Shown: positions 8,751-57,798 of the stretch, piece after piece
How the letters are laid out: each line of letters starts with the position of its first letter
Numbering within the stretch: position 1 is the stretch's first letter
Virus record (IMG/VR): IMGVR_UViG_2926558313_000004
Location: 32,001-96,000 of that record
Source: a virus
Lineage: Duplodnaviria; Caudoviricetes
Strand: one strand, 5' to 3'
Length of the DNA stretch: 64,000 nucleotides
Translations under genes and position numbers: made by a program
The notes under the pieces: model-generated
The model's input: the letters and a program-made list of their open reading frames with translations, nothing else
What the model was told of the DNA's origin: nothing
Database searches by the model: none

Positions 8751-9838
8751 TCTTTACTTCCTCTCTTCAACTTTTTAAAAGTCTTTTCATTTATTTAATC
8801 ATCCCAAAATTTATTTCCTTTAATGATGTGCTCCACAATAATTTTCACAATAATCGGAAACCAAAACAAGGTCACAAATGAGTAAACAGTTGCTAATATT
8901 TTTTTATCCCCAATCAATTTCACTAATAAATTCAAACTATCCAAGAGGTTTGATTCGAGTTTATCTAATTCTTTGCCATTCTCATACTTAATTATAGTGT
9001 GATCCATTACTTTTACTATACATTCTGACATTACAATCCCAAAGAAAAAATATCCACCATATATAATACTGATCATGTGACAACCTCCTCCGTATTCATC
9101 TATATAGGGTATTCATTCTAATTAAGAATTATTAATAGTTGTAAGGAATGGTCGCATTTAAAGAAAATAGTGAATAACAGAAACATTTTTTAATTTTCTA
9201 TCCCTTACTTCTCCTTTCATTAAAAGACCGTTTTTAATTAAATATATTCCCCTGCCGTATAGTTTTCAACGATTCCTTTCTCAGTCAAATCCAACATAAT
9301 TTTTTCAACTTTGTCTTTTACCGTCAGAGCGAATTTAAAATTTGGGTCTTGTGATAAGTAATATTGATAATCATAAGGTTGTAAAAAGTTTTCATCTAAT
9401 ACGTCAATTTTAAAACTACTATCTTCTTTTTTAACTGTGAGATTGAATGTAATATCCTCTTCAACTGTTTTACAATAATGCCAATATCCTTTTCTATACT
9501 CTGTGAAGGACAATTCTCTCATTTGCATATCATTTAATATGTTTACTTTCATAATTTTACTCTCCTTTAGAAAATTATTTAAATTGTAATTCCCCTTTAA
9601 AATAATTGGATAAAGCTTCATGAATATCAATACAGCTTACTTCTCTGCTCTTTTGTTCTACTTTTAAATTACCTGTTATCATTTGTTCATCATCATAAAG
9701 AATTTTAAAGTTAACCATATCTCTATATTTACCAGTAACATCACATAAAACAGTATTCACCTGATTGATAGTAATATAACCTTTCATATTCCCTCCTATG
9801 ATTTTTTTGATTAAAATGAGAATATTATATTATTTAAT

Positions 9839-10140
9839 TTATTTCTTTACTTCTTCTCTGTTTACTTCTATTCTCCACGCTTTATTCAGATCGCTAAAAT
9901 TTCTAGTGATCATTTCTCCAAATATAAGATGTCTGTCGCTCCACCCCTTATTAACTTCATTATGTAACTGTTCTTTGATAACTGTGGCATCATTATAACC
10001 TTTATGTAAATTCGCTTTAGGATTCCATTCTTTATACCAATACCTTAATTCAGAAAGAGAATTTTTATTCCCTATACGTTCTAATGCATCACATAACAAT
10101 TTTTTAAGCGCTCTTTCTTTTCTAGTCAAACCAATCATGT
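9839..10140 (-). CDS. Hypothetical protein, start uncertain
   Basis: The ORF-track start (10246) lies inside the IS right end; the body after MIGLTRKE is plausible coding sequence. Confidence 0.5.
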
Positions 10141-10210
10141 TTATTTTATTTTTATTATTTATTTTATTTAAATTCTTTTTCTGTTTTTCAGTTAAATTAA
10201 ACTCTTTAGA

Positions 10211-10400
10211 TGTAGGAGAGATTACATTATTTGAACTACTCACCACTTAACACCCTTCGGGTTGTTTGAAGTGGGAGATTCTTGGGAATAGAGCGTACTT
10301 GTTAGCGTATTTCTTTGCCAACAGAGGTTTCTCTTATTGACCAAGCTATCCCCGTAGATTCCTACGGTTCTATATTTTTTGTTTAAGCCAAAACTAAGGC
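10211..10400 (-). ncRNA. TnpB omegaRNA/reRNA scaffold plus flank-derived guide
   Basis: Structured sequence between the tnpB stop and the right end; guide predicted as ATAATGTAATCTCTCC (10230-10215). Boundaries approximate. Confidence 0.7.
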
Positions 10401-11525
10401 TCTTAAACCTTCGGCTAGGATATTTTTGCTGGCATTTATATCTCTATCGTGATGTTCGTGGCAAACAGGACAAGTCCAATCCCTTATTTCAAGAGATTTC
10501 TTGCCATCTTGATGTCCACAATCGGAACATATTTGACTAGACGGAAACCATCTGCTTATTTTCACGATTGTTTTACCATACCATTTCGCTTTGTATTCTA
10601 ATTTAGTTACAAAGGCAGACCATGATACATCAGAGATTGATTTTGCTAACTTATGATTGCGTAACATTCCTTTGGTGTTCAAGTCTTCGATACAGACAAT
10701 ATCGTGGTTTTTGATGATTTCTGTACTTAACTTGTTAAGAAAATCGTCACGTTGGTTCATTACTCTCTCATGCAATCTAGCAACTTTACGCTTTTGTTTC
10801 TGATAGTTTTTTGCATCAAGAAGGTTAATACCATTGTTTTTAGCATTTAACGCACGTCTTGAGAGTTTTCGCTGTTCACGTTTTAGTTTCTTTTCCATTT
10901 TTGATGTGAATTTCTTATTATCAATCTTGCGACCATCAGAAAGAATGGCAAAGTCAGTAATGCCTAAGTCTATACCAATAGATGATTCAGTTTTCTCCAA
11001 TGGCTGTACTTCTATTTCTGCAAGAATGGATACAAAGTATTTACCACTAGGATTTCGTCTAACAGTAGCATTAAGGAGACGACCATGTACTTCACGACTT
11101 TTGGCAAAGCGAACAAGACCAAGTTTCGGCAATTTGATTTTGCTGGCTACAATGGCAATGTTATTGTTTGTTCCTTTAGTCGTGTAGGATTGTACTTTAT
11201 TCTTTTTAGACTTGAAGCGCGGTGCTTTATTTTGTTTCTTGAAGAATCGAGTATACGAATCAGCAAGGTTTTTCAGTGATGATTGAAGGGCAATGCTATC
11301 AACTTCTTTTAACCATACTAATTCTTTTTTTAATTGTGTTAACTGAGCAGAACAAGAATTATAAGTTAATCCTTTGCCAGTTTCTTTGTATGTATCGTTC
11401 CATTGACCTAAAAAGCGATTAAATACAAAACGACTACATCCTATTGTTTTAGCAATTAAGATTTCCTGTTCTTTGGTTGGATAGATACGGAATTTGTACG
11501 CTTTGTTGACTAACATTGTTTCCAC
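10383..11525 (-). CDS. tnpB: RNA-guided endonuclease TnpB
   Basis: KAYKFRIYP HTH; RuvC D (GIDLG), E (IEDL), D (DRDINA); Zn finger CSDC...CPVC. Confidence 0.97.
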   Translation of the reverse strand: METMLVNKAYKFRIYPTKEQEILIAKTIGCSRFVFNRFLGQWNDTYKETGKGLTYNSCSAQLTQLKKELVWLKEVDSIALQSSLKNLADSYTRFFKKQNKAPRFKSKKNKVQSYTTKGTNNNIAIVASKIKLPKLGLVRFAKSREVHGRLLNATVRRNPSGKYFVSILAEIEVQPLEKTESSIGIDLGITDFAILSDGRKIDNKKFTSKMEKKLKREQRKLSRRALNAKNNGINLLDAKNYQKQKRKVARLHERVMNQRDDFLNKLSTEIIKNHDIVCIEDLNTKGMLRNHKLAKSISDVSWSAFVTKLEYKAKWYGKTIVKISRWFPSSQICSDCGHQDGKKSLEIRDWTCPVCHEHHDRDINASKNILAEGLRALVLA

Positions 11526-13185: not shown

Positions 13186-13207
13186 TCAGTCCATAAATAC
13201 TGGACTA
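13186..13207. terminator. Hairpin at the yopR-like stop
   Basis: AGTCCA-taaatac-TGGACT. Confidence 0.4.
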
Positions 13208-14179
13208 AATTTCGTATAACTTCTTGATGTTTTCTATGTTGACATCCTCTTTGATGCCAATAAGGTTGTAATCCATCTTGCCTTGCAGTTTTGATTTTTT
13301 ATGCCCGAAATTTTGAACAATTGTTCTCAAGTCGTTATTTGTTAGCTCCCCTGTTTCTTCATATATATCCTTTCCCACTTTTATCATGCCACTTCTTGCG
13401 ATATTTGTCGGCGTGAGATAAGGATAGTCAAAAAACTTTTTAAGCATTTTTACTCTAGTATAAAGTGTCATATTTCCGACTGGTGCATTTTCATCTAATA
13501 CCCGACCATTATCAATAGATCGGATAATAAAATCATTGCGTATTAATTTCTTTTCTGGATTTGCTCGTTGAAAAACGGATTCTCCGTTATTAACAATGTA
13601 TACAGATTCTTTATAAGCTTCCGTAATTATTCTTAAACACCTATCACTTACTTTTACCTCCCTTTCCATCTCTCCTCTAACTTTTATAATATTATTATCA
13701 AAGTCTATGTCTTTATAATGTAAATTTCTAATCTCACTCAGTTGTGATCCTTTCAATCCTTCAAATAGCAACCGGAAAACAACCTTGTCTTGTCCATTAA
13801 CTAACTTCTTATCTTCTAGTTCTGCCAACTCTTCTTCAGTAAGAAACTGCTTTTTGCTATGGTCAATTAAACGGAACAAGGAATCTCTAGTTAAATTTGC
13901 AATTGGATTAATGGAGCTATTAGAATATCCATGAGCACTAGCCCAGTCTATATAATTTTTAAACACATTTGCTGCCATAGCTATAGAGCCTAATGATGGC
14001 TGAGCCATGTCTCTTAAGGTATCTTCAATTTCTGCTCTAGTAAAAGAATATAGGTCTTTCTGGAGCGCTCTTTCATTTCTTTCAGCCCCTCTTAGCTTGT
14101 ATCTATAAATAACTGCAGTATCTGCATCATAATTTTTTAAAAAAGCTTCTTTGATTTTTTCGTTGTACAAATTAGACAC
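13205..14179 (-). CDS. yopR: Tyrosine-recombinase-fold master repressor, YopR/MrpR/SroF-like
   Basis: LYNEKIKEAFL start; LLFEGLKG..LSEIRNL; lacks the canonical catalytic R and HxxR; third gene of the yopP-Q-R triad. Confidence 0.8.
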   Translation of the reverse strand: MSNLYNEKIKEAFLKNYDADTAVIYRYKLRGAERNERALQKDLYSFTRAEIEDTLRDMAQPSLGSIAMAANVFKNYIDWASAHGYSNSSINPIANLTRDSLFRLIDHSKKQFLTEEELAELEDKKLVNGQDKVVFRLLFEGLKGSQLSEIRNLHYKDIDFDNNIIKVRGEMEREVKVSDRCLRIITEAYKESVYIVNNGESVFQRANPEKKLIRNDFIIRSIDNGRVLDENAPVGNMTLYTRVKMLKKFFDYPYLTPTNIARSGMIKVGKDIYEETGELTNNDLRTIVQNFGHKKSKLQGKMDYNLIGIKEDVNIENIKKLYEI

Positions 14180-15551
14180 CTACCTTGTATTTACTCAAAT
14201 CAATATTTTCAAACACTTCTTTTATGTGTTTCCGTATCCCTGCTGGAGATTTACCTTTCAACTCTTGCCAATTCTCCTTATTAAAGTCGATATCTTTTAC
14301 AATATCAGATAGTAACTCAATTTCAATACCCTCATCTTGCATTCGTTTAGCTAAGCAGACAAAACCATAAAACATAGTTGGTCTGTTAATTTCACTTTTA
14401 TATCTTATCTCTTTAATATCGCTGATGAATTCATCAGGAAACGAGTAACAAAGATTATTGAAATACTTAGTCAAATACTGACCAGTTTTAATAGCTTGAC
14501 CTCTATTTTCCATTTCAAAAAATTCTTCTACGGCATCCACTAAAATTCCGAAAGTAGTTAATTCATCAGACTTAACAGTATTCTCAGACGTAATCTTTTC
14601 TTTTAATTCACTACCTGACTTTTTAAGAAATTCTACAGCTACAGTAGATAACTTTTCTTGATCCATCTCCTTCATTCGAGAAGTAGTGATATCATTAAAT
14701 GTATTAATTTCAACAAACACTTCTTTTGCTTCGGCATCAGTGAGATTCTGTATCTTTATGATAAACTCCATGTCTTTATTTGGATTTTCATGCTGCCCTT
14801 CAACTGTTGCTGTAAAACGGTGAAATCCGTCAATGCAGTCAAATAAAGTCCCTTTTGTAATGGTTAATTCTTTTGTATCTTCATCGTAGGAGATTTCTTC
14901 CCCATCATCTGAACTTCCCAGGCGGGCATTAAAAGTTAATGTCGTACTTGATAATTTCCCTTTTAAAAATCTGTTTTTGATTCCTTCGATGCTTCTTCTA
15001 AATATTTTTGGGACGGGAATAAAGGTTTCATCATCAACCTGTTTGACTTTGCCACTTCTTTGTACGTTAGGATTATATTGAATCTGTTTTCCATTGCTTA
15101 ATAATCGCATTTCTGTTACGGATATTTTACCCGTATAGCCATCGTGCAACTTTTCGAAACTACTCTTGAAAGTATATGGAAATTTGATTTCTTCCGCCTG
15201 ATAACCCGTAAAAGTTGTTTCAATTTCCTTCTTCTCTCTTTCATTATAAAAATGGTCTGGATTCAGTCTTTGATTACCCGTTGTCATGTAAAGCTGCACT
15301 GAAAAAACATACAGCTCTTTATCGTCTAGTTGTGGAACTTCCTTTTCGGGATCATTTAATACAGATTGAACTCTGCCTCCCAGCACTTTAAACTCTGCCA
15401 TCAGATCCTTGTATTTACTAACCATATCTTTTTTTGTTTTTATTGTGGGAAGTATTTCAATCAATACACTCTCTAATTCTTTTCTTTCTACTTTCACAAT
15501 GTGACACCTCTCTTCAAAAGACATTTCAATTAATTTTGTTATTAAATTCAA
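14172..15551 (-). CDS. yopQ: YopQ/SroE-like protein with a DndB/DGQHR (ParB-Srx fold) domain
   Basis: YNPNVQR, TLTFNA, CIDGFHR motif; 459 aa; synteny. Confidence 0.8.
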   Translation of the reverse strand: MNLITKLIEMSFEERCHIVKVERKELESVLIEILPTIKTKKDMVSKYKDLMAEFKVLGGRVQSVLNDPEKEVPQLDDKELYVFSVQLYMTTGNQRLNPDHFYNEREKKEIETTFTGYQAEEIKFPYTFKSSFEKLHDGYTGKISVTEMRLLSNGKQIQYNPNVQRSGKVKQVDDETFIPVPKIFRRSIEGIKNRFLKGKLSSTTLTFNARLGSSDDGEEISYDEDTKELTITKGTLFDCIDGFHRFTATVEGQHENPNKDMEFIIKIQNLTDAEAKEVFVEINTFNDITTSRMKEMDQEKLSTVAVEFLKKSGSELKEKITSENTVKSDELTTFGILVDAVEEFFEMENRGQAIKTGQYLTKYFNNLCYSFPDEFISDIKEIRYKSEINRPTMFYGFVCLAKRMQDEGIEIELLSDIVKDIDFNKENWQELKGKSPAGIRKHIKEVFENIDLSKYKVGV

Positions 15552-15608
15552 TAATTAATACACTTCCCTTCTATTATACACAATATAAACAAAAAATAAA
15601 ACAAAAAA

Positions 15609-16682
15609 TTATAAATTCGAATTGAGGTTTCTTAGTAATATAATTTTCGCAACTTTATTACTATTAATTAAGTCCAATAACTCTTCTTTACTTAGCGATT
15701 CTAGAGCATCGCTGTTAAGAAATTTATCGAAATCTAACACACCTATTCTCTTGTATTTATTTTCTTTTATATATCTTTTTGTGACATTGAAATCTGAGTG
15801 ACCTGCGAATTCCATTGTCGCATGAGGATCTTTTGAGTTTTCATAAAAAATAGTAATCGCAGTTCCACGTATGCTATGGAAAGAGACATTTCTTTTTTCT
15901 GAAATATTCATTTTGATTTTAAGTTGATTCATTAGTTTCGATATATGATTCTTGTTAAACGGAAATACTACCTCGTCATTAACTTTATTATCAATTAATT
16001 CTTGAAAAAAGTCTTCATCTACATAATGAATTTTCCTCCGCTGCCCTTTTCCTCTTAATTCGATTTCATAATCTCCTTCTCTTGTGAGAATAAAATCGCT
16101 CCACTTCAACTTTAAAATTTCTTGCTGTCTCAGTCCGGTGTGTAAAGCGAACTTAATCAGCAATCCTTGAATAATTCGATTTTTAAATCTAGGCATTCCC
16201 TCTTTGACCATTGGGGCAATCTTTATCATTTCTTCTACTTCTTCCTTATGGAGTAAGCCGTAATTTACTTCTACGCTCTTAAGCTTTTGCATTTTACTAA
16301 TGAAGCTAATGTCTATATCGGCTAATAAACCAAATTCTATCTTCCTGCTATTTATATAGCTAAACAATCCAGTTATTGTCGTTAACTTTCGTTTTATTGT
16401 TTTATTAACCGAACCTTCATCCTGTAAATGAGCAATAAATTTATCAATATCGCTAACAGTAACTTTAAAATCATGTTCGATTAAATTTTCCAGCTCTTTT
16501 CCTTTTGTGATTTTAAAGAAATGTCTTATGTCACCCAAGTAGTTTTTAATTGTATTTTCGGATCTTCCGTTGCTCTTTAAATACATCATAATTATCTCTA
16601 AACAATTAACTTTATTTATATGGACTAATTGTAAGCTCATCTCTTTCATCCTCCTCAAAATTATATTAGGTTTATTATACAA
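15609..16682 (-). CDS. yopP: Tyrosine recombinase, YopP/SroD-like (start probably about 16649-16640)
   Basis: SAM-like N-domain (SENTIKNY); full catalytic set GLR, RGKG, FHSIR, AGH, RY. Confidence 0.85.
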   Translation of the reverse strand: MYNKPNIILRRMKEMSLQLVHINKVNCLEIIMMYLKSNGRSENTIKNYLGDIRHFFKITKGKELENLIEHDFKVTVSDIDKFIAHLQDEGSVNKTIKRKLTTITGLFSYINSRKIEFGLLADIDISFISKMQKLKSVEVNYGLLHKEEVEEMIKIAPMVKEGMPRFKNRIIQGLLIKFALHTGLRQQEILKLKWSDFILTREGDYEIELRGKGQRRKIHYVDEDFFQELIDNKVNDEVVFPFNKNHISKLMNQLKIKMNISEKRNVSFHSIRGTAITIFYENSKDPHATMEFAGHSDFNVTKRYIKENKYKRIGVLDFDKFLNSDALESLSKEELLDLINSNKVAKIILLRNLNSNL

Positions 16683-47455: not shown

Positions 47456-49669
47456 TTAACTCCTCCATTTGTTTAACTCTTCTTTGCTTGCTATTAATTC
47501 ATATCCCCTATTCCCTTCATGCTTTATCAGCCATCTATCTTCAATTAACTGATGCATTAATTCCTTTATTACTTCTGGTCTTGTTCTCATCTCTTCTCTT
47601 AATTTTCTCGCTCTTACTTCCCCTGTGCTAGCGATAATGCGTTTAATTTTATCCAATGGACTTTCTTCTACTACTTTCGGATTTAAATACCGATTCGATT
47701 TTACATATGAGATAATTTTTTTATATGTTTTTTCTTCCTCATTAGCATTTAAAGAAATTACCGCACTTTGAAATTGCTCAAATGGTTTGATTTGACCTTT
47801 TAACTTCATGACTCCATGCCCACTACCCAATAATTCAAATGGAACACCTGTTCCAAAAACTGTTCTGTATCCAGAAGAGGTTGATAATCTGAAACTAATC
47901 TTAGATGGAATATTGTCTTTAATTATGGTATCAACAATATTTTTATTTGGCTGCTGAGTAGCTATTATTAAATGGATTCCAGAAGCCCTTGCTTTTTGAC
48001 TTATTTTTTGAATACTGTCAACTATTTGGGGATTAGCCATCTTTAAATCTGCGAATTCATCAATTATGATTACGATATATGGAAGAGGATCATGGGGATT
48101 TTTTTGATTATAACTCTTGATGTCTTTAGCACCTCTCTTTTTAAATAATTCATATCTTTTTTCCATTTCTTGAATAACCTCATTCTCCATCTTTAACGAT
48201 GCCTCTTTTGGATCTGTAATTACTGAATTAACGTGAGGAAATTCTTTAAACTGTACTAGTTCTACTTGTTTTGGGTCAATAAGATAAAGATTAAGGCGAC
48301 TAGGTGGAACAAAAAGGAGCATTGTTAAAATAGCTTGATTTAAAAAATTGGATTTTCCTCCTCCTGTCTCACCAGCTATAAGAAGATGGGTTAAAGAAGT
48401 CAAACAACGAAATATCGGTTTACCAAATGAATCGAGTCCGACAAAGAAAGGAATTTCCAACTCTATGAGAGAATTTTGTGTCTTTTTATCAGATAATACT
48501 TCACTGAGATAAATCGCATTCTTGTTTTGTTTGGCAATTAAAAACCCAATGGTGTCAGGTTTATCACCTTGTTCAATTGACAGTGAAGATACTCCAAGTG
48601 ACACCTGAACATCTTCCTTTTTTGCAATAATTTTTGAATAAACTAAGTCTTTTGGTATGAAGTACTGACACCTAATAAAACTAAGACCATCCATTTCATG
48701 ATCTAATTTCATATCTTTTTCACTTTTAATTACACCTATTCTTTTTAATGTTTTTGGTATTTGTAGAGAAATATCTCTATATTCATTATTTATACTTTTA
48801 TTATTGTTCATTGGCAATAGATCAAATATATTGTTTGCGGCATTAACACCCTCCTTTTCTTTGTGCCTCCCTTCTTCAATTATATCTTTTGTGAGTTCTA
48901 TTGTATTGTCGTAAGCCAAGAACGAATTTATCTCATTTCTGCTCAAATATTGTTTTTCATAAAATATTGATGAACCACTTTTAATTTCTTCTATGAAAAA
49001 ACAGTTCATTCCTGACAGTTTTTTGCACGAATATTTTATTAAGTCTTTAATTAATTTTATTTGGCTATTGTTGTTGCTATCGATACCTATCATACATTCA
49101 AAACTATATTGATCATCAATTATTTTCTGCTCAATTTCTTTTATAGGACTTCTAATCTTAGATTTTGCTTTAAGGTTTAATATGTTCCAAATTGACCGAT
49201 AAAAACCACTTTCTATCGCCAACTCATTTCCGGTGATAAAGTGCTCATATTTTTCTATCTCAGTATCTCTCCATGCCCCACTCCTTTTTTTAATCATTAA
49301 TTTAATTATTATTTTATCATTGGGATCAAAAACATGGAGATTACTAAGCAAAGGAGAAATGAGTGAAAGACCATCTTCTACACCTATCGGAAAGAGCGAG
49401 TCTTCTTTCAATTTCAATCGAATCCAGTTGGCAGCATTAATATTAACTCCGTTTACAACTTCACTCAATCCTCTGTTTTTCCAGAAATAAGGAGCATGAA
49501 GGTAAGACTTGCTTTCGTGTTTATTAATTTCCCATATAACTGACACATGTGCCATTTCTAAGTAGTGATTATCAAATAGCTTTTCATGATCTTTAATCAT
49601 GAAATAACCATATGAATATTTTTCTTCGTCGTTCACATTTATAAAATTTGACAATATTTTATTTAGCAC
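47456..49669 (-). CDS. FtsK/SpoIIIE-family ATPase with a C-terminal wHTH
   Basis: HLLIAGETGGGKS, IDPK, IIDEFADL, RASGIHLIIATQQP, LLGSG. Confidence 0.93.
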   Translation of the reverse strand: MLNKILSNFINVNDEEKYSYGYFMIKDHEKLFDNHYLEMAHVSVIWEINKHESKSYLHAPYFWKNRGLSEVVNGVNINAANWIRLKLKEDSLFPIGVEDGLSLISPLLSNLHVFDPNDKIIIKLMIKKRSGAWRDTEIEKYEHFITGNELAIESGFYRSIWNILNLKAKSKIRSPIKEIEQKIIDDQYSFECMIGIDSNNNSQIKLIKDLIKYSCKKLSGMNCFFIEEIKSGSSIFYEKQYLSRNEINSFLAYDNTIELTKDIIEEGRHKEKEGVNAANNIFDLLPMNNNKSINNEYRDISLQIPKTLKRIGVIKSEKDMKLDHEMDGLSFIRCQYFIPKDLVYSKIIAKKEDVQVSLGVSSLSIEQGDKPDTIGFLIAKQNKNAIYLSEVLSDKKTQNSLIELEIPFFVGLDSFGKPIFRCLTSLTHLLIAGETGGGKSNFLNQAILTMLLFVPPSRLNLYLIDPKQVELVQFKEFPHVNSVITDPKEASLKMENEVIQEMEKRYELFKKRGAKDIKSYNQKNPHDPLPYIVIIIDEFADLKMANPQIVDSIQKISQKARASGIHLIIATQQPNKNIVDTIIKDNIPSKISFRLSTSSGYRTVFGTGVPFELLGSGHGVMKLKGQIKPFEQFQSAVISLNANEEEKTYKKIISYVKSNRYLNPKVVEESPLDKIKRIIASTGEVRARKLREEMRTRPEVIKELMHQLIEDRWLIKHEGNRGYELIASKEELNKWRS

Positions 49670-49682
49670 AATGTCCTCTCCT

Positions 49683-50765
49683 TTACCTAAGAAGTTTTTT
49701 ACCAGCTAGCTTTACCCAACCAGCGGGTGTAGATAAATTAAGAGACTTTAATGTAAACATAGCTCTATATCCTTTTAACATCTCATTTATCCCTTTTTCT
49801 GAAGTAGAAGCCAAGTTCTTGATGAATCTTGGAGGATGGCTCATACGCCAGAAACCACCTGCTACGATAATTATGCGAAAAATAGCTTCCCATCCACTGG
49901 AAGTCCCCCTAGTAAGAAAAATAAATAATCCTATAAAAGTTATAAATAGAGCATAAGTGAGTTGAACAATACAAATATCTTTAATGTTCTCATACCACAT
50001 AAAAAAGTATTTTTTTGTATCGGTAAATATCCAAGATGACAGTGCAAGAGGCGTAAGGGCGCTTAAAACAAACAAGTCAAAATATCTTCGACCGTTTTGT
50101 AAAGCAACAGGTATTAAAGTTCCAATCAATAAAACGTCAAAACCAATGAAAGCTAATGTATCTAGTCCTGACAGAGTTGAAGCTGGCAAATCAGAAGAAG
50201 TAGACATGCCACTATAACCTAATTTAGTGATTAACCTAGATAGTTGACTGACATAATAAAAGACTTTTTCAAGAATAAATGGAGAAAATCCCATTCCTAC
50301 GATTACAATCGCAAATCGTTTTACGATATCTGAAAAATTATCTGCTTTCTGCTGTCGATTAAACATAAGCTTTACCGAATTTAAGATAAATCCTATTGTC
50401 ACCAATCCTATTGATACTCCCGAAAAAATCATTATGTTTTCCCTAAAATAATCATTAGTAAAGATAAATGGAGGTATTTGTAGTACGATGCTTGAAATAG
50501 CTTCGTAACACCAGCCAAGCAAATCAATACTAGCTACAGCAATTTTTGAATTTAAATCAGCAATCCAATCAAAAAACTGATTCAATTTGCTTCCAATTTC
50601 ATCCCATAGATCTAATTGATCTTTTATACGCTCTCCGATCATTAGCCCCTTCTCTAATCCCTCATCATTTTTGCTCAAATCCCAAATTATTTGAGCTGGT
50701 GACTTGTATTTAGTGTGAGCAAAAGCTTTTTCACAATTAAGTAGTATAAATGACATGGAAAACAC
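49683..50765 (-). CDS. Polytopic membrane protein (VirB6/TrbL-like)
   Basis: About 6 hydrophobic segments; RYFDLFVLSALTPLAL...FFMW pattern. Confidence 0.6.
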   Translation of the reverse strand: MFSMSFILLNCEKAFAHTKYKSPAQIIWDLSKNDEGLEKGLMIGERIKDQLDLWDEIGSKLNQFFDWIADLNSKIAVASIDLLGWCYEAISSIVLQIPPFIFTNDYFRENIMIFSGVSIGLVTIGFILNSVKLMFNRQQKADNFSDIVKRFAIVIVGMGFSPFILEKVFYYVSQLSRLITKLGYSGMSTSSDLPASTLSGLDTLAFIGFDVLLIGTLIPVALQNGRRYFDLFVLSALTPLALSSWIFTDTKKYFFMWYENIKDICIVQLTYALFITFIGLFIFLTRGTSSGWEAIFRIIIVAGGFWRMSHPPRFIKNLASTSEKGINEMLKGYRAMFTLKSLNLSTPAGWVKLAGKKLLR

Positions 50766-50797
50766 AGAAACAGGGATGATTATTTTTTTATATTTAT

Positions 50798-51367
50798 TTA
50801 TAAGGGAAGTTGAAAGTTCGGCAATCCTCCCAACAATAATTTTGCCACAGTTAGTAAAATGATGATTACGGTGGGCGTTATTAGTATTTGTGTCATCCCT
50901 TTGATTGAATTTGATGCTGATTCCATTGCTTTTTTGTGATATTTCTCGTTTGGATGATAGTAATAAAGTCGAGTTATAAGAAGAACCAAAGCCCCGATCC
51001 CTATTCCAATTATTACTGAATAGTCTATTAGCATTTTGACTACTTCCATTAATTCTGTCGAGGTGGGTAGACCTGTTATTTCTGCCACTGATTTCTCTTC
51101 TGCACTGGCTTTGATTGGTTTTGTAATTGCTGTGGTTGATAGGAGCAGTGGAATGGTGTTTTCCAATATTTTTTGTTTGCTGTTTGGTAGCTTTTTCACC
51201 TCCTTTCTTAGTTGATCCACTAAAAAACTTAGTTGATTTGAGTTTCTGTCACTAATTGTTATAACCTTATTTGGCTTCTTGTACTTGACGTAGCTCTTCA
51301 AGGACTTCGCTTGCATGTTCACCTGTATAGACATTTCTCTTTCCTCCTCTACTTCTTTTAAAATCAA
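50798..51367 (-). CDS. Membrane protein with two C-terminal TM helices (pilin/VirB2-like topology)
   Basis: Hydrophobic hairpin SVIIGIGIGALVLLI / ILITPTVIIILL. Confidence 0.55.
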   Translation of the reverse strand: MILKEVEEEREMSIQVNMQAKSLKSYVKYKKPNKVITISDRNSNQLSFLVDQLRKEVKKLPNSKQKILENTIPLLLSTTAITKPIKASAEEKSVAEITGLPTSTELMEVVKMLIDYSVIIGIGIGALVLLITRLYYYHPNEKYHKKAMESASNSIKGMTQILITPTVIIILLTVAKLLLGGLPNFQLPL

Positions 51368-51509
51368 GTGATTTACTTTCTTTCTTACTTAGTTTGAAAT
51401 CATGATGTTTTTGCAAGCCTGAAATCAAACCAATACTCGTGCTCACAACTAATCCTGCCTTAATTGCTAACCACCCGATACCTAATATTGTTGTAGTCAA
51501 TTTTTTCAC
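51267..51509 (-). CDS. Small membrane-anchored protein
   Basis: N-terminal hydrophobic helix; overlaps the downstream gene. Confidence 0.45.
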   Translation of the reverse strand: MKKLTTTILGIGWLAIKAGLVVSTSIGLISGLQKHHDFKLSKKESKSLDFKRSRGGKRNVYTGEHASEVLEELRQVQEAK

Positions 51510-51580
51510 CTCATTTTTGTTTGCTTACTAAAGTGTATTCATGAGAAAATTTGTACTATTACAAATTAAATCGAAAAAAT

Positions 51581-51991
51581 TTACTCCCTATAAAGAACTC
51601 TCCTTATGGGTGGATTGTTGAATGCTGTCCATATCCTCAAAAAATTATCTAAAGACATTTGAGATTTATTATTTAAAATCAAATTTAATGTTGATGGGTC
51701 AATCTTTGTTATTTCAGCAAGATCTTTTTGCTTTGCTTCTGAATTTACAAGTAACTCTTTAAAGCGGTTTTTAATTACACCTTGTTCAATTTCATTTTGG
51801 TTTACGACATCATAATTGAAGAGAGTGTGGATCTCAGCCAATTGTTTGACAACTGATCCCTTTATGAAGTTTTCAATTAAGACTGGTTCCTCACCAATCT
51901 TTAGCAATTCATTTTTATAATTGTAGTAATTCACGACTTTTACAAGTTCCTCGTAAGTTTCGTCTCTAAGTGAGATTTTTATTTCCTTCAT
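51581..51991 (-). CDS. Regulator with an N-terminal RHH-like segment and a C-terminal XRE HTH
   Basis: MKEIKISLRDETYEEL; QKDLAEITKIDPSTLNLI. Confidence 0.75.
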   Translation of the reverse strand: MKEIKISLRDETYEELVKVVNYYNYKNELLKIGEEPVLIENFIKGSVVKQLAEIHTLFNYDVVNQNEIEQGVIKNRFKELLVNSEAKQKDLAEITKIDPSTLNLILNNKSQMSLDNFLRIWTAFNNPPIRRVLYRE

Positions 51992-52132
51992 GAATAACCC
52001 CTCCGTATTTAGGACATTTTAAAGGTAACATGATTTTTGAGGTGATAACGCATGGCAAAAACCAAGGAAGAAAGACTGTCAGACACTATTAAGGATATTA
52101 ATAATAACGGCAAAAATGCTTAGGAGGAAAAT

Positions 52133-52300
52133 ATGGAAGCTTTTATGGGATGGAAAATAGATAAGTTTGACTGGGAAGATGACTTGTTGAACTGCAGCAA
52201 TAAAATTATAAGGGAAACAGGTCTTTCAAGAGAACGGTTATATACGGCATTACACGTTCTAAGTGAAGAAGGAATAATAAAAGCTAAAATAATAAATTAA
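52133..52300 (+). CDS. 55-aa wHTH-like protein not in the ORF track
   Basis: RBS AGGAGG; IIRETGLSRERLYTALHVLSEEGII. Confidence 0.55.
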   Translation: MEAFMGWKIDKFDWEDDLLNCSNKIIRETGLSRERLYTALHVLSEEGIIKAKIIN

Positions 52301-52796
52301 ACCAAATAACAATATTAGAAATGATGATATTAATAAATTCTGTAAGTTGCTCCTGATTATTGCTTAAAAGATCGAGGATGGAATGGTGTGGATTACTAAA
52401 AATCCCTGCTTCATTACCCATATTTTGAATTTGATCAATATATTGAGATGGATCTATATACTGGTCATTAAACTTTACTCCGAAGTGAAGATGGTTTCCG
52501 GTGGAATGTCCGGTATTGCCCGAATAACCAATAAGCTGATCTTTTTCAATTGAATCTCCACTTTTCAATTGATTGTTAAATTTGCTTAGATGACCATAGA
52601 TAAAAGTTAATCCTTGTTCATTCTCAATCATGACGGTTTTTCCGGCATTTTTATCACCATAGTCTACATATTTAATTACTCCTTCGGTAATTGAATAAAG
52701 TTCCTCTCCTTCTTTCATAGCAAAATCAATTCCATTATGAGGATTTTTTCTGAAAGCTTCTTGTTCACCGAAATGTGAAGTGATTCTCCAAGTCAT
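52284..52796 (-). CDS. M23 metallopeptidase (peptidoglycan hydrolase)
   Basis: HNGID, YGHL, GNTGHSTGNHLHF. Confidence 0.93.
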   Translation of the reverse strand: MTWRITSHFGEQEAFRKNPHNGIDFAMKEGEELYSITEGVIKYVDYGDKNAGKTVMIENEQGLTFIYGHLSKFNNQLKSGDSIEKDQLIGYSGNTGHSTGNHLHFGVKFNDQYIDPSQYIDQIQNMGNEAGIFSNPHHSILDLLSNNQEQLTEFINIIISNIVIWFNLLF

Positions 52797-52895
52797 ACCA
52801 ATCCTCTCCTATTTAATATTTCATAATAATTTGATTCCTGTCTCTACCGAGGTTAATTGGATAACTTAAAAAGACAAAAATTTAGCTGTTTTTCT

Positions 52896-52972
52896 GTTAC
52901 CCACTAGTGGTAACGGATTCGGTAACACATATGGGTAACAGAAATTTGATTTTCGGTAACAAAGAGGGTAAC
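52896..52972. repeat. GGTAAC iteron cluster (tubC-like centromere candidate)
   Basis: GGTAAC at 52909, 52921, 52934, 52955, 52967 plus inverted GTTACC at 52896. Confidence 0.7.
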
Positions 52973-52999
52973 AATAAGTTTATATGTCAGTATAATATT

Positions 53000-54109
53000 T
53001 TATCGTTGGTATCTTGTTAAAATTTCAGTTATTGACCTCTTTTCTTGTGTTTTTTGTTCCTTTTTATTGAATAGTGAAATATCTAAATCGGGTCGATATC
53101 TTTTTTCAGGTTGTAATGTACTTTTAATTCGACTTTCATCGGAATGAATTTTTTGTTCAATTTGCTTTAATCGTGTTTCACACCATGAAAGACCGCTGCA
53201 AATGGTAATTATTTTGCTTGCGCCTGTGGAATAATATCCCTCAAATAAGTTAATTGGCTCCCCAAAGTCAAAATGCCTAAATAGTCTATTTGAATGTGTA
53301 TTGCTTATAGTTTTGGAGTCATAATCAAAGATCACTCCTGCTTTAATCACCTTTTTCATCTCTGGCTCAATATAAATAGAACATAGCCATGACTGCTTAG
53401 TTTTTTCATATATCCATTGTTCATCTTCAAATTTCGATTCTTCGGTAACATTAATGTCTCCAATAATAGCTAACCCGTCAGTGTCAAAGATCGTCAATAA
53501 GTCTCTCTCATCTAAGTTGGATATAGATGATTCTTCTCGTGTGTATTTTAAAAGTTGATGAATTTGGTTTATAAACTTACAATTTATTTCCATATACTTA
53601 GTGTGTTTATTTAGATTACTGTTTGCTTTTTGATTATCTATAGGCAGAATGCACGTTTGTAAATTAGATAATTCTGAAAAAACATCTAGGGTATTAAGTT
53701 GATTAATTGTTACTTCTGTCAGATCAGGTAAAATTGGACAAGCTACGATAACCTTACCTAATTTATGTTTAAGTAATTCAATAATCATTGGACTAGAGCC
53801 AGAACCAGTTCCTCCGCCAGTGGAAAAAGCAATAAAAATTATCTTAATCGAAGGGTGTGAAAACCTCTCTTCTATAAATGAAACCACTCTCTCCCAATTA
53901 AAGTTCATAAGTCGAAGTGCCTCATTTCGATCTCTTCCCACTCCCTCGGAACCAATTAAACAAAGTTTATTTTCATTTTGAATTTCTTTGCAGCCATCTA
54001 AATCTTTTTGACTGAAATTTATTGCTACTGAAGGATACCCTAATTTAGATGCTAAACTCACTACAGAAGTCCCGCCTTGCCCAACTCCTATGAAACCATA
54101 CATGTTCAT
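53000..54109 (-). CDS. Tubulin/FtsZ-family GTPase (TubZ/RepX-like)
   Basis: GVGQGG, GGGTGSG signature, IDN, T7-like NLDERD. Confidence 0.9.
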   Translation of the reverse strand: MNMYGFIGVGQGGTSVVSLASKLGYPSVAINFSQKDLDGCKEIQNENKLCLIGSEGVGRDRNEALRLMNFNWERVVSFIEERFSHPSIKIIFIAFSTGGGTGSGSSPMIIELLKHKLGKVIVACPILPDLTEVTINQLNTLDVFSELSNLQTCILPIDNQKANSNLNKHTKYMEINCKFINQIHQLLKYTREESSISNLDERDLLTIFDTDGLAIIGDINVTEESKFEDEQWIYEKTKQSWLCSIYIEPEMKKVIKAGVIFDYDSKTISNTHSNRLFRHFDFGEPINLFEGYYSTGASKIITICSGLSWCETRLKQIEQKIHSDESRIKSTLQPEKRYRPDLDISLFNKKEQKTQEKRSITEILTRYQR

Positions 54110-54384
54110 TCAACCCCTTCTAATGAATAATGAACAGATTTAACTCCGAAATTTGTAATATAAATATCATGAGTCATTTGATTTCTTAAGATTCCAATTA
54201 GCTTTTTTGTTTCTAAAGACATAATTGTTTTATTGAAAGTTGCCTGACTCCAATCAATTTTTTTCTTCAAATCTTTACGTTTAAGTGCTTTAAATGGAGC
54301 ATCGGAATCATGATCCATCAAAATTCCCAGTATCATAATTTCATTATTTGATAAATCAGATGCGATTGCTTCAAAATAATTCAT
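54106..54384 (-). CDS. MarR-like wHTH protein (TubR-like adaptor)
   Basis: SQATFNKTIMSLETKKLI...IYITNFG; translationally coupled to the tubulin gene. Confidence 0.7.
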   Translation of the reverse strand: MNYFEAIASDLSNNEIMILGILMDHDSDAPFKALKRKDLKKKIDWSQATFNKTIMSLETKKLIGILRNQMTHDIYITNFGVKSVHYSLEGVE

Positions 54385-54524
54385 CAGCCTACCTCCTTAA
54401 AATTTTTAAAAAATTTTAAAGCGAATTGAAAATGTTCAAATATTTCGCTTTGTGATTTAGTTATATGCAATGTATACTTGTCAATATTTCCATTTATTTT
54501 TAAAAAACAAAATAAATTAAAACA

Positions 54525-54553
54525 TTGACTAAAATAATAATTTGTAGTAAAAT
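54525..54553 (+). promoter_or_regulatory. Sigma-A promoter for the yonO operon
   Basis: TTGACT-N17-TAAAAT preceded by CAAAATAAATTAAA. Confidence 0.7.
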
Positions 54554-54659
54554 TAGTACAAGTAATAGAATAGGGAGGTGCTAAAAAGAAGTAATGTATT
54601 TTAATTAAATAAAGTAAATTTAATTATACAAATGAAAATATTTAAAGGAGGATTAATTA

Positions 54660-54968
54660 TTGGGGTATTCAAATGAAGAACAAGAAACAGTTTTAGTGTT
54701 TAATAGAGTTACTGATAAGTGGGATGTATATAGTTGCTGCTCCCCTCATATCACAAAATTAGTCAATACATATGGAATGAAAAAATTCACAGCAGATTAT
54801 GAGGAAGGACGTGAAGCCCCTCTCTCCCTTCGTGGAACGCTGGAAGCAAACCAAGTTTCATTTAGAAAAGGTGAAAAACGCAAACGAGAATTGTCTCCTG
54901 AGCAGTTAGAGGCTCAAAGAGAGCGTGTGAAGAAAATGCGTTTAGCAAGGAAAAACAAATTGAAATAA
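54660..54968 (+). CDS. Phage hypothetical protein
   Basis: RBS AAAGGAGG; EQETVL...ITKL...LSPEQ. Confidence 0.75.
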   Translation: MGYSNEEQETVLVFNRVTDKWDVYSCCSPHITKLVNTYGMKKFTADYEEGREAPLSLRGTLEANQVSFRKGEKRKRELSPEQLEAQRERVKKMRLARKNKLK

Positions 54969-55034: not shown

Positions 55035-55241
55035 GTGAAAAGGCGGATAATAATGAAGGATCTAAAAAAACATAAATTTAGTGTTAGAGAAGTAATTGAA
55101 TATATAGAATATAAGATTTTACACAATGAAGAAACTGATGAGGAATATGGTTGGTATGTTGACTATCGGTGGTTTGGGATCATAAATAAAGATAGAGTTT
55201 TAAGAAAAATTTTGGATGAGATGCATGAGTATTGGGGGTGA
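55035..55241 (+). CDS. Hypothetical protein (YonP-like position)
   Basis: Small ORF directly upstream of the yonO-like gene. Confidence 0.55.
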   Translation: MKRRIIMKDLKKHKFSVREVIEYIEYKILHNEETDEEYGWYVDYRWFGIINKDRVLRKILDEMHEYWG

Positions 55242-55248
55242 AACATTA

Positions 55249-57798
55249 TTGCTCGATAAACAAGTTTATATTTACAGCCTAGATACAGCAAATTTTTACA
55301 ATGAATTTGAAACAAAAATACATAATAAATTAAATAAATCCTACATATATAAAAAAACATTAAATAAAATAATTAATTCTAAAGATATCGATAAAGAAAA
55401 AAAGGATAAAATACAAACTCGTTTAATATGGAATAATAAAAGAATAAAAAGATTAAAAGACGATTTATATAAAGAGTTTGAAAAAAATAGTGAAACTCGT
55501 AAACTTAAAAAAAGATCTCTTGTAGATAGAAATGTCATTTCGTTATTTGATTCAGTATTAACAAGGACTATAGGAGTAAAACAAAGCGAATTAACTACCG
55601 ATATAATTGTGGTACAGACGTATTTTTTTCAAGTTTTAGAGCAGTTGATACAGGACGGATTTACTTTAGATAATGAAAAATACATATGTTTTACTGCGTC
55701 GGCAGGACAAATTAGAACTAAAAAGACAATGTTTATCAAAGAATCAGTATGGAAGAAACATGAAAAATCTTTGACATGTGGACTAACTGTAGATGATATT
55801 AATGCTAAAGGCGGCATGAATACTAATAAGTATTTGGCGTATCTAGCTTTATGTAATAGTGCTACAGATGAATGGATTGATTTCAATATCGATCGAGCAA
55901 TTGTGGTTGACGATCTTGAAACAGATGTATTCGGAGAAGTTGATTATATAGATGACAAAACATTTGATGTAACTAGAAGATCTATGAGTGTCCCTATTCC
56001 TCATACAGATGGATGTGGAATGATTTTGCCTAAAGTGTCAAGTAAATCATTTATGGTTAGATTACCTTTTATTAAAGGTCTTCTCTCCCCTTTTGATTTT
56101 TATGATTTTGCTAAAGAACATTCCGCTTACATCATCAAAGATATATATGGGAAAGAGTGGGACTTGAGAAAAGATGAAATTGACGTGATCTTTACTCGTT
56201 CGCAATTTAAAATGGCTTCTTTCTATTCTTCTTGGCAGGATTATCGTGAAAAATTTATCAAATATAAGTGTCAGGCAGCTAAATGTAACGTTGAAGAAGG
56301 TGATATACCTGATGCAAAATTAAATTATCAAATGCTACAAACTCTCTCTGATATGACTAATGAAGAACTATATCGAGTATGTGAGCCTACTTTGACAGAG
56401 CTTGAGAATATAGCTACTGACAAATCAACTATGTTTAAAGTATTAGGAATAACTAAATCAAATAAAAATAAAAGTTACATACAGAAGTCTATAGAAGCCT
56501 ACCCTCCACTATTGAACGATTATTACAGTAAAGAGATTTTAAAAAGTAAAAAGAGATCGATGGTAAATGATGCTAGGTCGGCAAAATTAAAAATCAATGG
56601 AAAATATACTTTTATTATTCCTGATCTATATGCTTTTTGCGAAAGAATTTTTTTAAACATTGAAAATCCTCAAGGTTTATTAAATAATGGCGAGGTATAT
56701 TGTAGTTTATACCCTGAGCATGAGGAATTAGATTGTTTAAGAAGTCCTCATCTGTATAGAGAACATGCAGTTAGGAAAAATGTTATTGATTCAATTAAGA
56801 AGAAATGGTTCATTACAAAGGGTTTATATACGAGTGTACATGACTTAATTTCCCGTGAGCTTCAATTTGACTGCGATGGAGATAAAAGTTTGGTGTGCGC
56901 TGACGAAACTATAATTAAGGTCGCTAAAAGAAATATGGAAAATGCAGTTCCTCTTTACTACCAAATGGCAACTGCACAAAAAGGTAAAATAACCAGCGAA
57001 GAAATTTATAAGGGACTGCAAGCTGCTTATAAAGGAAATATTGGGATCATTTCTAATCAAATTTCTAAGATTTGGAATAGCAAAGCAATTAATATTCAGG
57101 CAATTAAATGGCTCACTGCTTATAACAATTATGTTATTGATTATGCGAAAACACTTTACTTGCCAATAATACCTTCTGAAAAAAGAAAGATAATTAACAG
57201 TTACACAAGAAACAAAGTGCCCCACTTCTTTACTTATGCAAAAAAGAAAAAGAAAAGTGAAGTTGAACCTTTAAATAGTAGTGTAGTAAATAAGCTTGAA
57301 AGGATGATTCCTAATAAAAGAATTCAATTCAAAAAAATAGGAGGAGAATTCGATTATAAGTTCCTATTAAAAAACAAAAAAATACAAGTCGATAATAAGA
57401 TTATTGAAAAATATATAGAGTTAGACAGATCTAAAAAGTGGAGATTAAAAAAATCAGATGAGAAAACAAAGTCGAAGTCAGTATTGTATGTATATAATAA
57501 AATACGAAATGAATTATTAGAGATTAATGAAGATCCATATTATATTACTGATGTACTCACAAGATATTTATATGAAAAGGAAAGCTCTCGAAAAGAAACT
57601 TTATGGCAATGTTTTGGAGATATTCTTTATGAAAATTTAACTAAGAATCTCAAAGGGAAAAAATCCTGTGTCTCCTGCGGAACAATAATTAAAGTTGCTA
57701 ATAATAGAGTCAAGTATTGTAGAAAATGCTCCAATGAAAAACAAAAAGAATGGCAGCGAACTAGCATGAAGAAATCTAGAAAGACAAAAAACATGTGA
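55249..57798 (+). CDS. yonO: YonO-like single-subunit DNA-dependent RNA polymerase
   Basis: TASAGQIRTKK, HTDGCG, RLPFIKG, RSPHL, catalytic QFDCDGD, IDYAK, C-terminal Zn ribbon; TTG start after GGGGGTG. Confidence 0.92.
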   Translation: MLDKQVYIYSLDTANFYNEFETKIHNKLNKSYIYKKTLNKIINSKDIDKEKKDKIQTRLIWNNKRIKRLKDDLYKEFEKNSETRKLKKRSLVDRNVISLFDSVLTRTIGVKQSELTTDIIVVQTYFFQVLEQLIQDGFTLDNEKYICFTASAGQIRTKKTMFIKESVWKKHEKSLTCGLTVDDINAKGGMNTNKYLAYLALCNSATDEWIDFNIDRAIVVDDLETDVFGEVDYIDDKTFDVTRRSMSVPIPHTDGCGMILPKVSSKSFMVRLPFIKGLLSPFDFYDFAKEHSAYIIKDIYGKEWDLRKDEIDVIFTRSQFKMASFYSSWQDYREKFIKYKCQAAKCNVEEGDIPDAKLNYQMLQTLSDMTNEELYRVCEPTLTELENIATDKSTMFKVLGITKSNKNKSYIQKSIEAYPPLLNDYYSKEILKSKKRSMVNDARSAKLKINGKYTFIIPDLYAFCERIFLNIENPQGLLNNGEVYCSLYPEHEELDCLRSPHLYREHAVRKNVIDSIKKKWFITKGLYTSVHDLISRELQFDCDGDKSLVCADETIIKVAKRNMENAVPLYYQMATAQKGKITSEEIYKGLQAAYKGNIGIISNQISKIWNSKAINIQAIKWLTAYNNYVIDYAKTLYLPIIPSEKRKIINSYTRNKVPHFFTYAKKKKKSEVEPLNSSVVNKLERMIPNKRIQFKKIGGEFDYKFLLKNKKIQVDNKIIEKYIELDRSKKWRLKKSDEKTKSKSVLYVYNKIRNELLEINEDPYYITDVLTRYLYEKESSRKETLWQCFGDILYENLTKNLKGKKSCVSCGTIIKVANNRVKYCRKCSNEKQKEWQRTSMKKSRKTKNM

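Follow-up and report, generated by a model that had tools for sequence, protein, structure and literature searches.

Streptomyces TraB is an FtsK-like motor for the conjugation of double-stranded DNA, with a winged helix and clt repeats, and FtsK and SpoIIIE are alpha-beta motors paired with the oriented repeats KOPS and SRS, respectively. In the type III partition systems (TubZRC; pBtoxis, pBM400, and phage c-st), tubR is located immediately upstream of tubZ. The centromere of the described type III systems is always located upstream of tubR, according to PMC6009700. Phage actin and tubulin homologues have so far been treated as stand-alone partition or positioning devices. Phage homologues of FtsK/SpoIIIE are usually listed as "sporulation-like" or "auxiliary" without a mechanism (PMC12651245). 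Here, we analyzed a stretch of 64,000 nucleotides from a virus of the Caudoviricetes (positions 32,001 to 96,000 of IMG/VR record IMGVR_UViG_2926558313_000004; hereafter "the window"), in which genes for TubR, TubZ, an M23 peptidase, an XRE regulator, two small membrane proteins, a VirB6/TrbL-like membrane protein, and an FtsK-like ATPase, together with a cluster of GGTAAC repeats, lie at positions 47456-54384. A first-pass annotation made from the sequence alone had listed these elements, and every one of them was recovered in its place; it had also described a co-oriented run, which holds for the named genes, all on the minus strand, but not for the run as a whole, which is interrupted by a plus-strand open reading frame (ORF) of 55 aa (52133-52300).

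Judged by sequence comparison, large Bacillus phages share a conserved, mobile cassette, of which this region is the tubulin-type version. The cassette is peculiar neither to the prophage containing the window nor to tubulin; its commonest form is actin-like and occurs in Herelleviridae. We give a probability of roughly 0.5 to the reading that phage DNA is delivered by the filament to a double-strand DNA pump that is anchored at the membrane and loaded at a site on the DNA.

A scan of IMG/VR with the VirB6-like membrane protein yielded 39 viral loci. The FtsK gene lies directly downstream of the membrane gene in 38 of them, and the contig of the 39th ends there. A filament gene was found upstream in 37/39 loci, actin-like in 34 and TubZ in three. 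Thirty-two of the 34 actin-like loci carry a long actin-like protein (Alp) with an adaptor and two carry a shorter Alp, as assigned by Pfam; L055, which lay outside the Pfam scan, has a layout equal to that of one of the two short-Alp loci, and L041 is ambiguous. The Alp families in the actin-type cassettes are PF17989/PF21522, accompanied by a ribbon-helix-helix-like adaptor. On this sequence evidence, three kinds of filament gene, one tubulin-type and two actin-type, fill the filament position. The cassette genes are co-conserved across phage families and move as a block, and in this respect the neighbourhood survey did not refute the module that had been postulated in the first-pass annotation. 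A metagenome scan added nine loci, mostly short or duplicating viral contigs.

The gene order was also kept over considerable sequence distances. In an Alkalihalobacillus locus (L007), the order TubZ-M23-XRE-TM-TM-membrane-FtsK-RecD2 (TM, small transmembrane protein) is retained at 29-54% protein identity, with a divergent TubR upstream. Most of the order is kept in a Nanhaiella locus (L008), where TubR lies upstream of tubZ and YonO is divergent upstream, and the order is the same in three further Herelleviridae genera. In the Spbetavirus Goe14, an actin-like Alp, a small protein, M23, small proteins, the membrane protein, and FtsK are located next to yonO, and Herelleviridae phages such as Bastille and Bp8p-C show the same order as Goe14. 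SPbeta itself has no such cassette next to yonO, consistent with the first-pass annotation, which knew of no such module there. The carriers are phages with genomes larger than 120 kb, and Herelleviridae phages are virulent.

The strongest single piece of evidence came from Goe14 (L001, vB_BsuS-Goe14). Its positions 4294-10905 are 94-96% identical at the DNA level to the Herelleviridae loci L023, L025, and L053; in the comparison with L025 (95.4%), the stretch begins just before the Alp gene and stops at the end of the FtsK gene. Because DNA identity reaches about 95% although Goe14 and Herelleviridae are otherwise unrelated, the cassette, its filament part included, is exchanged as one unit, and the identity points to a recent transfer between phage families. 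Compared with the phage Alp/ParM-like systems (the Bp8p phages and AlpC of CGP3), most relatives likewise use an Alp with an adaptor, whereas the window uses a tubulin; the record of Bp8p-C annotates its Alp as a plasmid segregation protein. A literature search, which did not cover the Bp8p paper or any supplements, found neither the cassette nor its shared array described, nor the replacement of actin by tubulin within it.

The motor gene (47456-49669, minus strand) encodes a 737-aa FtsK-like ATPase, which matched Pfam FtsK_SpoIIIE (PF01580, E 3.6e-43), phrog_3551 (2e-157), and the PDB entry of FtsK 2iuu (4e-44). It consists of an N-terminal domain of unassigned family (about residues 1-340), the FtsK alpha-beta motor, and a C-terminal winged helix, and it has a single P-loop domain with the Walker A motif GETGGGKS. 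Pfam gave no match for the N-terminal 380 or the last 90 residues, and no membrane helix in the protein passed the hydropathy threshold. In the structural model (predicted local distance difference test, pLDDT, 76.9), Foldseek aligned the alpha and beta domains over 395 columns to the FtsK motor on double-stranded DNA (6t8b; E 8e-28, TM-score 0.84, 30% identity); identity to FtsK structures was 27-31%. The second-best match was the pCW3 coupling protein TcpA (2e-20), with the type VII ATPases far behind. By these matches, the motor is closest to the FtsK double-strand DNA translocase. The C-terminal winged helix (residues 671-736, about 47462-47659) was confidently modelled where the gamma domain of FtsK sits, and its profile matched the winged helices of DtxR/MntR regulators (9e-5).

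The gene at 49683-50765 (minus strand) encodes a polytopic membrane protein of 360 aa with a conserved PV(L/A)xQNGRR motif (phrog_3750, 5e-70). Its language-model features resembled those of TrbL clusters in the Atlas at 0.95, with structural TM-scores of 0.69/0.75. Among its 23 homologues, Pfam reported TrbL_4 in one (4.6e-5) and TrbL in three (E 0.17-0.26), all below the curated cut-offs. When the AlphaFold2 model (pLDDT 69.5) was submitted to Foldseek, the top five PDB matches were all TrwI/VirB6 (E 0.012-0.08, TM-score 0.42-0.53). These three weak to moderate lines suggest a VirB6/TrbL-like protein, in agreement with the VirB6-like call of the first-pass annotation. The protein is confined to Bacillus phages in 160/162 phage records, a restriction that would fit a link to the septa of sporulating or chained cells.

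The array that lies between the filament gene and the pump genes occupies 52896-52972, where a hexamer count gave six copies of GGTAAC/GTTACC, five direct and one inverted in the gene direction. Six of the 11 such hexamers in the window fall into these 77 bp between tubZ and the M23 gene, spaced by 12-13 or 21 bp, against a Poisson expectation of 0.015 per 90-bp stretch. No repeat array was present upstream of tubR (54380-54680 of the window), whereas pBM400 has AGTATC repeats there. An array follows tubZ in all six TubZ+FtsK loci (the window, L007, L008, L017, L018, and L050), and all share a layout of several direct copies and then inverted copies; the motifs are (G/A)TTACC(C) in L008, L018, and L050, GTTTCC(C) in L017, and AGTTCC(C) in L007. 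In the four TubRZ loci without an FtsK gene (L006, L009, plaBV1, and pBM400), no array was found after tubZ. In the actin-type cassettes, a TT(A/T/-)CC(C) motif family with the same direct-then-inverted layout is located directly 3' of the adaptor gene, and the adaptor looks like a ribbon-helix-helix protein unrelated to TubR. Because arrays also follow the actin-type filament genes and are absent from the four FtsK-less TubRZ loci, the GGTAAC repeats are probably not an ordinary tubC. Called iterons in the first-pass annotation, they appear to behave more like a site tied to the C-terminal winged helix of the FtsK-like protein than like iterons of TubR, and we propose that the array is a loading or hand-over site for the pump. 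In L039, L043, L044, and L046, the direct and inverted blocks are separated by a conserved palindrome (GGCTCTATAGAGCC-like) that has T residues and a TATATA-like stretch after it; this element may combine a terminator with a promoter.

The C-terminal winged helix of the FtsK-like protein is the sole DNA-binding-type domain common to all cassettes. Its covariation with the repeats was examined in 17 representative loci, classed by the middle base of their repeats (A, T, or none), and a quick IQ-TREE tree was used for FtsK. Residue 698 had the highest adjusted mutual information with the motif class (0.517, first of 714 columns), residue 699 ranked third (0.366), and five of the top 12 columns fell within residues 671-736. 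In the model, residues 698-699 are the first two of the third helix, and in the alignment they fall where the MntR-type recognition helix begins. At residue 699, N/D goes with TTACC or ATACC, T/A/S with TTTCC, and E with ATTCC; the pairing of N with TTACC occurs both in the TubZ clade and in an actin clade nested among ATTCC/E relatives. For the controls, the top column reached 0.286 of 383 columns in the membrane protein and 0.30 of 89 in the adaptor. Furthermore, loci L027 and L040 have adaptors with nearly identical DNA-binding parts and different arrays (TTACC in 10 copies versus ATTCC in eight), and their FtsK residues 698-699 differ as well (MN versus AE). Goe14, Bastille, Eldridge, 010DV004, and McCartney, which were checked after the rule had been stated and are all kin of the training set, all fit it; for Bastille the automatic scan gave no cluster, and three ATTCC copies were read by eye. 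These results point to the winged helix as the best-supported candidate for the reader of the repeats.

TubR (54106-54384, minus strand; 92 aa) is a winged-helix centromere-binding adaptor with a full-length match to the solved TubR 4asn (residues 2-88, E 9e-13), and a homologue of about 93 aa was located immediately upstream of tubZ in 11/11 TubZ loci examined. TubZ (53000-54109, minus strand; 369 aa) is a tubulin/FtsZ-like GTPase (Pfam Tubulin, 1e-14), and its start overlaps the stop of tubR as ATGA. Its best solved matches were 4xcq ("TubZ", 5e-13) and 3v3t ("Cell division GTPase FtsZ, diverged", 3e-12), both of which we take to be TubZ of phage c-st. The nucleotide-binding signature GGGTGSG and the T7-type motif NxDxxD can be read in the sequence, and G99, G100, G102, D200, and D203 are invariant in the alignment. 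The protein shares about 41% identity with the TubZ encoded on Priestia plasmids of the pBM400 type. Its clade is small, with 49 proteins at E <= 1e-5 in a large protein collection, and the phage collection gave matches to one phage, Bacillus phage G, as two records. By family membership and gene order, TubR and TubZ are bona fide TubZRC members, the position of the centromere excepted: the window array lies downstream of tubZ only and has counterparts in actin-type cassettes. Further differences are that no TubY-like gene was identified and that a membrane/FtsK gene set follows.

The mechanism that we propose proceeds as follows. Acting via the small DNA-binding adaptor, TubZ, or Alp in most relatives, would carry phage DNA that has been replicated or excised to the membrane, a pole, or a septum. 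At this site, the pump would be a soluble, hexameric double-strand DNA motor of the FtsK type, docked on the VirB6/TrbL-like membrane protein and accompanied by a small membrane protein or two and, in roughly half of the cassettes, by the M23 wall hydrolase. The C-terminal winged helices of the motor would recognise the TT(A/T/-)CC(C) array between the filament and pump genes, the motor would load there, and the loaded motor would drive phage double-stranded DNA through a barrier formed by a membrane or septum. Since the array has two blocks in opposite orientation, motors may be loaded facing both ways, as a looped or circular molecule needs, and M23, where present, may remodel wall material at the site. 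Of this scheme, the identities of the parts, their co-conservation, the block transfer, and the position, layout, and covariation of the array were observed; that the motor docks on the membrane protein, that its winged helix binds the repeats, that the filament hands DNA over, and that DNA is translocated are inferences. As the destination, a closing division or sporulation septum, including entry into the forespore, is ranked above a neighbouring cell.

In its logic, the putative machine would be nearest to Streptomyces TraB/clt and to FtsK/KOPS or SpoIIIE/SRS, with a separate channel-like partner and cytomotive delivery added. It shares with TraB/clt a single FtsK-type motor, a C-terminal winged helix, clustered short repeats as a possible recognition site, and the lack of a relaxase among the window ORFs scanned. 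However, its motor has no membrane-association segment of its own; it is paired instead with VirB6-like and small membrane proteins, an M23 peptidase, and a cytomotive filament, and it occurs in Bacillus phages. With FtsK/KOPS and SpoIIIE/SRS it has in common the alpha-beta motor, a winged helix at the gamma position, and oriented repeats that are purine-rich on one strand, but it lacks the N-terminal membrane domain and a gamma-family match, and its repeats are at one site rather than replicon-wide. The analysis shows that filament and FtsK genes in large Bacillus phages form one exchangeable cassette with a channel-like protein and a conserved DNA site, in which an actin-to-tubulin swap is tolerated, and several vague annotations become one testable machine with a concrete specificity prediction, namely two winged-helix residues against one repeat base. 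It bears on how virulent phages persist in spores or carrier states and on whether phage genomes can cross septa, and a site-specific pump would be a compact system for directed transport of double-stranded DNA.

Several observations weigh against the site-loaded pump. Many of the 39 loci are near-identical isolates (36/39 FtsK sequences in the tree are distinct), so that independent lineages number perhaps a dozen. The array statistic is weak: although one pentamer, counted on both strands in 260 bp, occurs in at least six copies in 34/42 loci, arrays hold 4-11 copies as compared with 3-7 in the best 260-bp windows elsewhere in the same AT-rich loci, only 33/42 arrays exceed every other part of their own locus, and the orientation is forward-biased in 29 loci, equal in three, and reverse-biased in 10. 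The fixed position and layout of the array weigh more than the copy count. The window itself breaks the residue rule, with P-E at 698-699 beside GTTACC, and L044, L039, and L046 are further exceptions. In a two-criterion phylogeny-breaking test, two columns passed (543 and 699), which is about chance (71 x 22 over about 700 columns). In the actin-type representatives alone, residue 698 came third of 732, behind two conservative V/I columns, and the motif classes largely follow clades, with few independent changes (about 4-6). Because of the exceptions, the chance-level strict test, and the clade-following classes, the winged helix stays a candidate reader. The FtsK gamma domain (PF09397) gave neither a Pfam nor a PDB-profile match at the C-terminal winged helix, and the VirB6 fold match is modest (E 0.012 at the model pLDDT given above). 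M23 was detected in only 20/39 cassettes, and no signal peptide was found in the M23 of the window or in 21/21 homologues.

The remaining points against the pump are shared with an alternative that we consider unlikely, in which an ordinary TubZRC partition system, maintaining or positioning the phage genome, merely adjoins an unrelated early membrane/FtsK cassette as an independent neighbour and the repeats are the centromere and operator of TubR, only displaced to the downstream side of tubZ. TubR and TubZ are closest to the system of plasmid pBM400, and TubRZ occurs without FtsK genes in the four loci named above. In two of these (L006, 11531-14507; L009, 3223-6301), the genes after TubR-TubZ encode a membrane protein (phrog_13699) and, in place of the FtsK-like protein, another P-loop ATPase of about 790 aa (phrog_5156), in which Walker A and B motifs are visible and which in L006 had no PDB match; these genes may represent a second kind of filament-linked ATPase module. 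Conversely, the XRE-TM-membrane-FtsK core is present on plasmids of the B. cereus group and of Niallia, and no filament gene was annotated or detected in their 7-9 kb flanks, nor was there a clear array. The conserved 55-aa ORF also splits the cassette genes, lying between the two halves. With a spacing of about 12 bp, the repeats look like tubC iterons, and the TubR recognition-helix residues differ between the motif classes across six loci, as a possible account of the repeat class. However, the centromeres of the described type III systems and the AGTATC repeats of pBM400 lie upstream of tubR, where the window has none, and the same repeat family also follows the non-homologous ribbon-helix-helix adaptors of the actin-type cassettes and is missing from 4/4 FtsK-less TubRZ loci. 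Co-conservation of the filament gene (37/39) and the transfer of the Alp-to-FtsK block as a whole at 95% identity likewise argue against independent neighbours. The first-pass annotation, whose interpretation is partly supported by the present analysis, had called the region a partition system fused to a transfer apparatus; co-conservation and block exchange bear out the association, but "fused" overstates an obligatory link, because TubRZ occurs without the FtsK part and the FtsK part occurs on plasmids without nearby filament genes. One of the FtsK-less loci, the 122-kb Bacillus velezensis plasmid plaBV1 (L056), carries YonK, HU, a large gene at the YonO position, and TubR-TubZ, and it looks like an extrachromosomal SPbeta-like element in its gene content.

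An extension of the filament-and-pump reading would make the cassette a portable, virion-free machine of both virulent and temperate large Bacillus phages, in which the filament leads to the septum and a site-loaded pump, seated on a channel that originated in a type IV secretion system (T4SS), drives the naked double-stranded genome into the forespore or an adjoining cell of a chain. We regard this extension as doubtful; if it were true, phages would have a second, capsid-free route of transmission and persistence.

A conjugation-like, virion-independent transfer in the manner of TraB/clt, with M23 opening the wall and the motor pumping double-stranded DNA through a VirB6/VirB2-like conduit into a neighbour, appears decidedly improbable. 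In favour of it, the cassette resembles the Gram-positive T4SSs (Tcp of pCW3, Con of ICEBs1, and tip of pXO16) in its VirB6/TrbL-like protein, its TcpA-like ATPase (E 2e-20), its wall hydrolase with intact HxxxD and HxH motifs, and a possible VirB2/TrbC-like protein of 189 aa, and the winged helix with short repeats mirrors, by analogy, TraB with the clt repeats. General scans of 20 window ORFs revealed no relaxase family, and no genome-wide relaxase search was made; in B. thuringiensis, plasmid pXO16 uses two ATPases and a hydrolase for conjugation, with no relaxase or oriT identified (PMC9673590). The cassette nevertheless differs from a T4SS in several respects. A genome-wide search for the VirB4-type ATPase with PF12846 (AAA_10) gave 0 matches in the 99.99%-complete genome, with PF03135 outside the search, so that the earlier statements that neither VirB4 nor a relaxase is visible both held within these scopes. 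VirB4 is, to our knowledge, a universal T4SS component, and because none was found, the cassette does not seem to be a T4SS. In addition, no VirB8-like part was identified, and the motor is closer to FtsK than to TcpA. Plasmids carrying the core cassette are typed as non-mobilizable, which together with the lack of VirB4 disfavours classical conjugation. About half of the cassettes lack M23, which bears no export signal, the commonest carriers are the virulent Herelleviridae, which spread by virions, and no function on the recipient side or in surface adhesion was seen.

We consider it very unlikely that the cassette is a device for genome entry or for the replication site, in which an early motor pulls in a long genome or tethers replicating DNA and the filaments organise the replication site. 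The cassette does lie among early or replication genes (RecD2, DnaD-like, UvrD, and the YonO RNA polymerase), and its carriers have long genomes. An actin-like protein of a Corynebacterium prophage is reported to be needed for efficient viral DNA replication (PMC4446434), and AlpC together with AlpA directs phage DNA to the cell membrane, where replication continues (PMC8026635). On the other side, the array is internal and adjoins partition genes, an entry channel must precede any phage gene expression, and the cassette is also present on large plasmids.

Protein export of a type VII/IV-related kind, in which the ATPase and the channel would export the signal-less M23 or other phage proteins and the repeats would be an operator only, is hardly probable at all: the absence of a signal peptide from all M23 homologues, the use of FtsK/SpoIIIE-family ATPases to power type VII secretion (YukB/EssC and EccC were matched at about 1e-20), and the hairpin and TATA-like stretch flanked by the array in several cassettes speak for it, but the motor is a single FtsK_SpoIIIE stretch with one P-loop domain and no membrane helix, as opposed to the several P-loops, membrane helices, and FHA of EssC/EccC, its alpha and beta domains align to FtsK on DNA far better than to those proteins, its DNA-type winged helix has a recognition helix covarying with the repeats, M23 is dispensable in about half of the cassettes, and no WXG100-like gene was noticed, though none was searched for; protein secretion is disfavoured above all because of the FtsK-like motor and the DNA-type winged helix. 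The host has an EssC-like gene of its own (1497 aa) elsewhere, on contig C10.

The remaining genes of the cassette are small. The M23 metallopeptidase (52284-52796, minus strand; 170 aa, with a hydrophobic C-terminal tail) was identified by Pfam (3.1e-27) and phrog_7767 (1.9e-50); among its homologues, HxxxD is kept in 21/21 and HxH in 20/21. The 55-aa antisense ORF between the M23 and XRE genes is 41% identical to an ORF at the same place in L007 (E 7e-14), and its product may be a small winged-helix regulator. The XRE-type helix-turn-helix regulator (51581-51991, minus strand; 136 aa) gave weak Pfam matches to HTH_19, HTH_26, and HTH_3 (E 2e-5 to 8e-4). In the versions found on SPbeta-like elements and on plasmids, its gene stands at the head of the membrane/FtsK genes, and homologues were found in L007, L008, 6/39 viral loci, and the B. 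cereus plasmid L057. By hydropathy, the protein of 80 aa encoded at 51267-51509 (minus strand) is a small membrane protein with one N-terminal helix and a homologue in L007, and that of 189 aa, as an ORF, at 50798-51367 (minus strand; likely start 51334) is a membrane protein with two C-terminal helices (phrog_3528, 7e-16). The frames of the two overlap by about 70-100 nt, and the overlap recurs in L007 and L008. For the 189-aa protein, the Atlas led to T4SS_pilin/TrbC at 0.86-0.87, a lead only, and the Niallia plasmid gene at the same position is labelled "TrbC/VirB2 family protein" in its record; the protein is possibly VirB2/TrbC-like.

The window corresponds to positions 32003-96002 of contig C5. 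The G+C content of the first 150 kb or so of this contig is 31-36%, compared with 46% genome-wide, and host-like composition follows; because of this low G+C followed by host-like DNA, the window lies inside an integrated prophage of at least 150 kb. By its YonO-type, YopP-, YopQ-, and YopR-like genes, the prophage is classified as SPbeta-like. The YonO-type single-subunit RNA polymerase gene (55216-57798, plus strand; 860 aa, with the DxDGD motif) is divergent from the cassette, and its product is about 53% identical to SPbeta YonO and its relatives and equally to a gene of Clostridium phage D-1873. Genes for a YopP-like tyrosine recombinase, a YopQ-like protein (phrog_5732), and a YopR/MrpR-like protein (phrog_5830) form the SPbeta lysogeny-management set at 13205-16682 (minus strand). 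RecD2, DnaD-like, and UvrD-type genes come after the cassette on the same strand. A DNA search of the whole region against the phage collection gave short M23 matches only (seven records, 3% coverage) and no close relative, and a promoter/terminator scan was uninformative, with 27 promoter-like sites as compared with 35 expected from shuffles. A transposase gene (10383-11525, minus strand; phrog_506, 1e-138) is located inside the prophage in a stretch of slightly raised G+C. In the last 7 kb of contig C5 (190001-197000), after 40 kb of host-like DNA, the G+C content returns to 37%, where another mobile element may be present.

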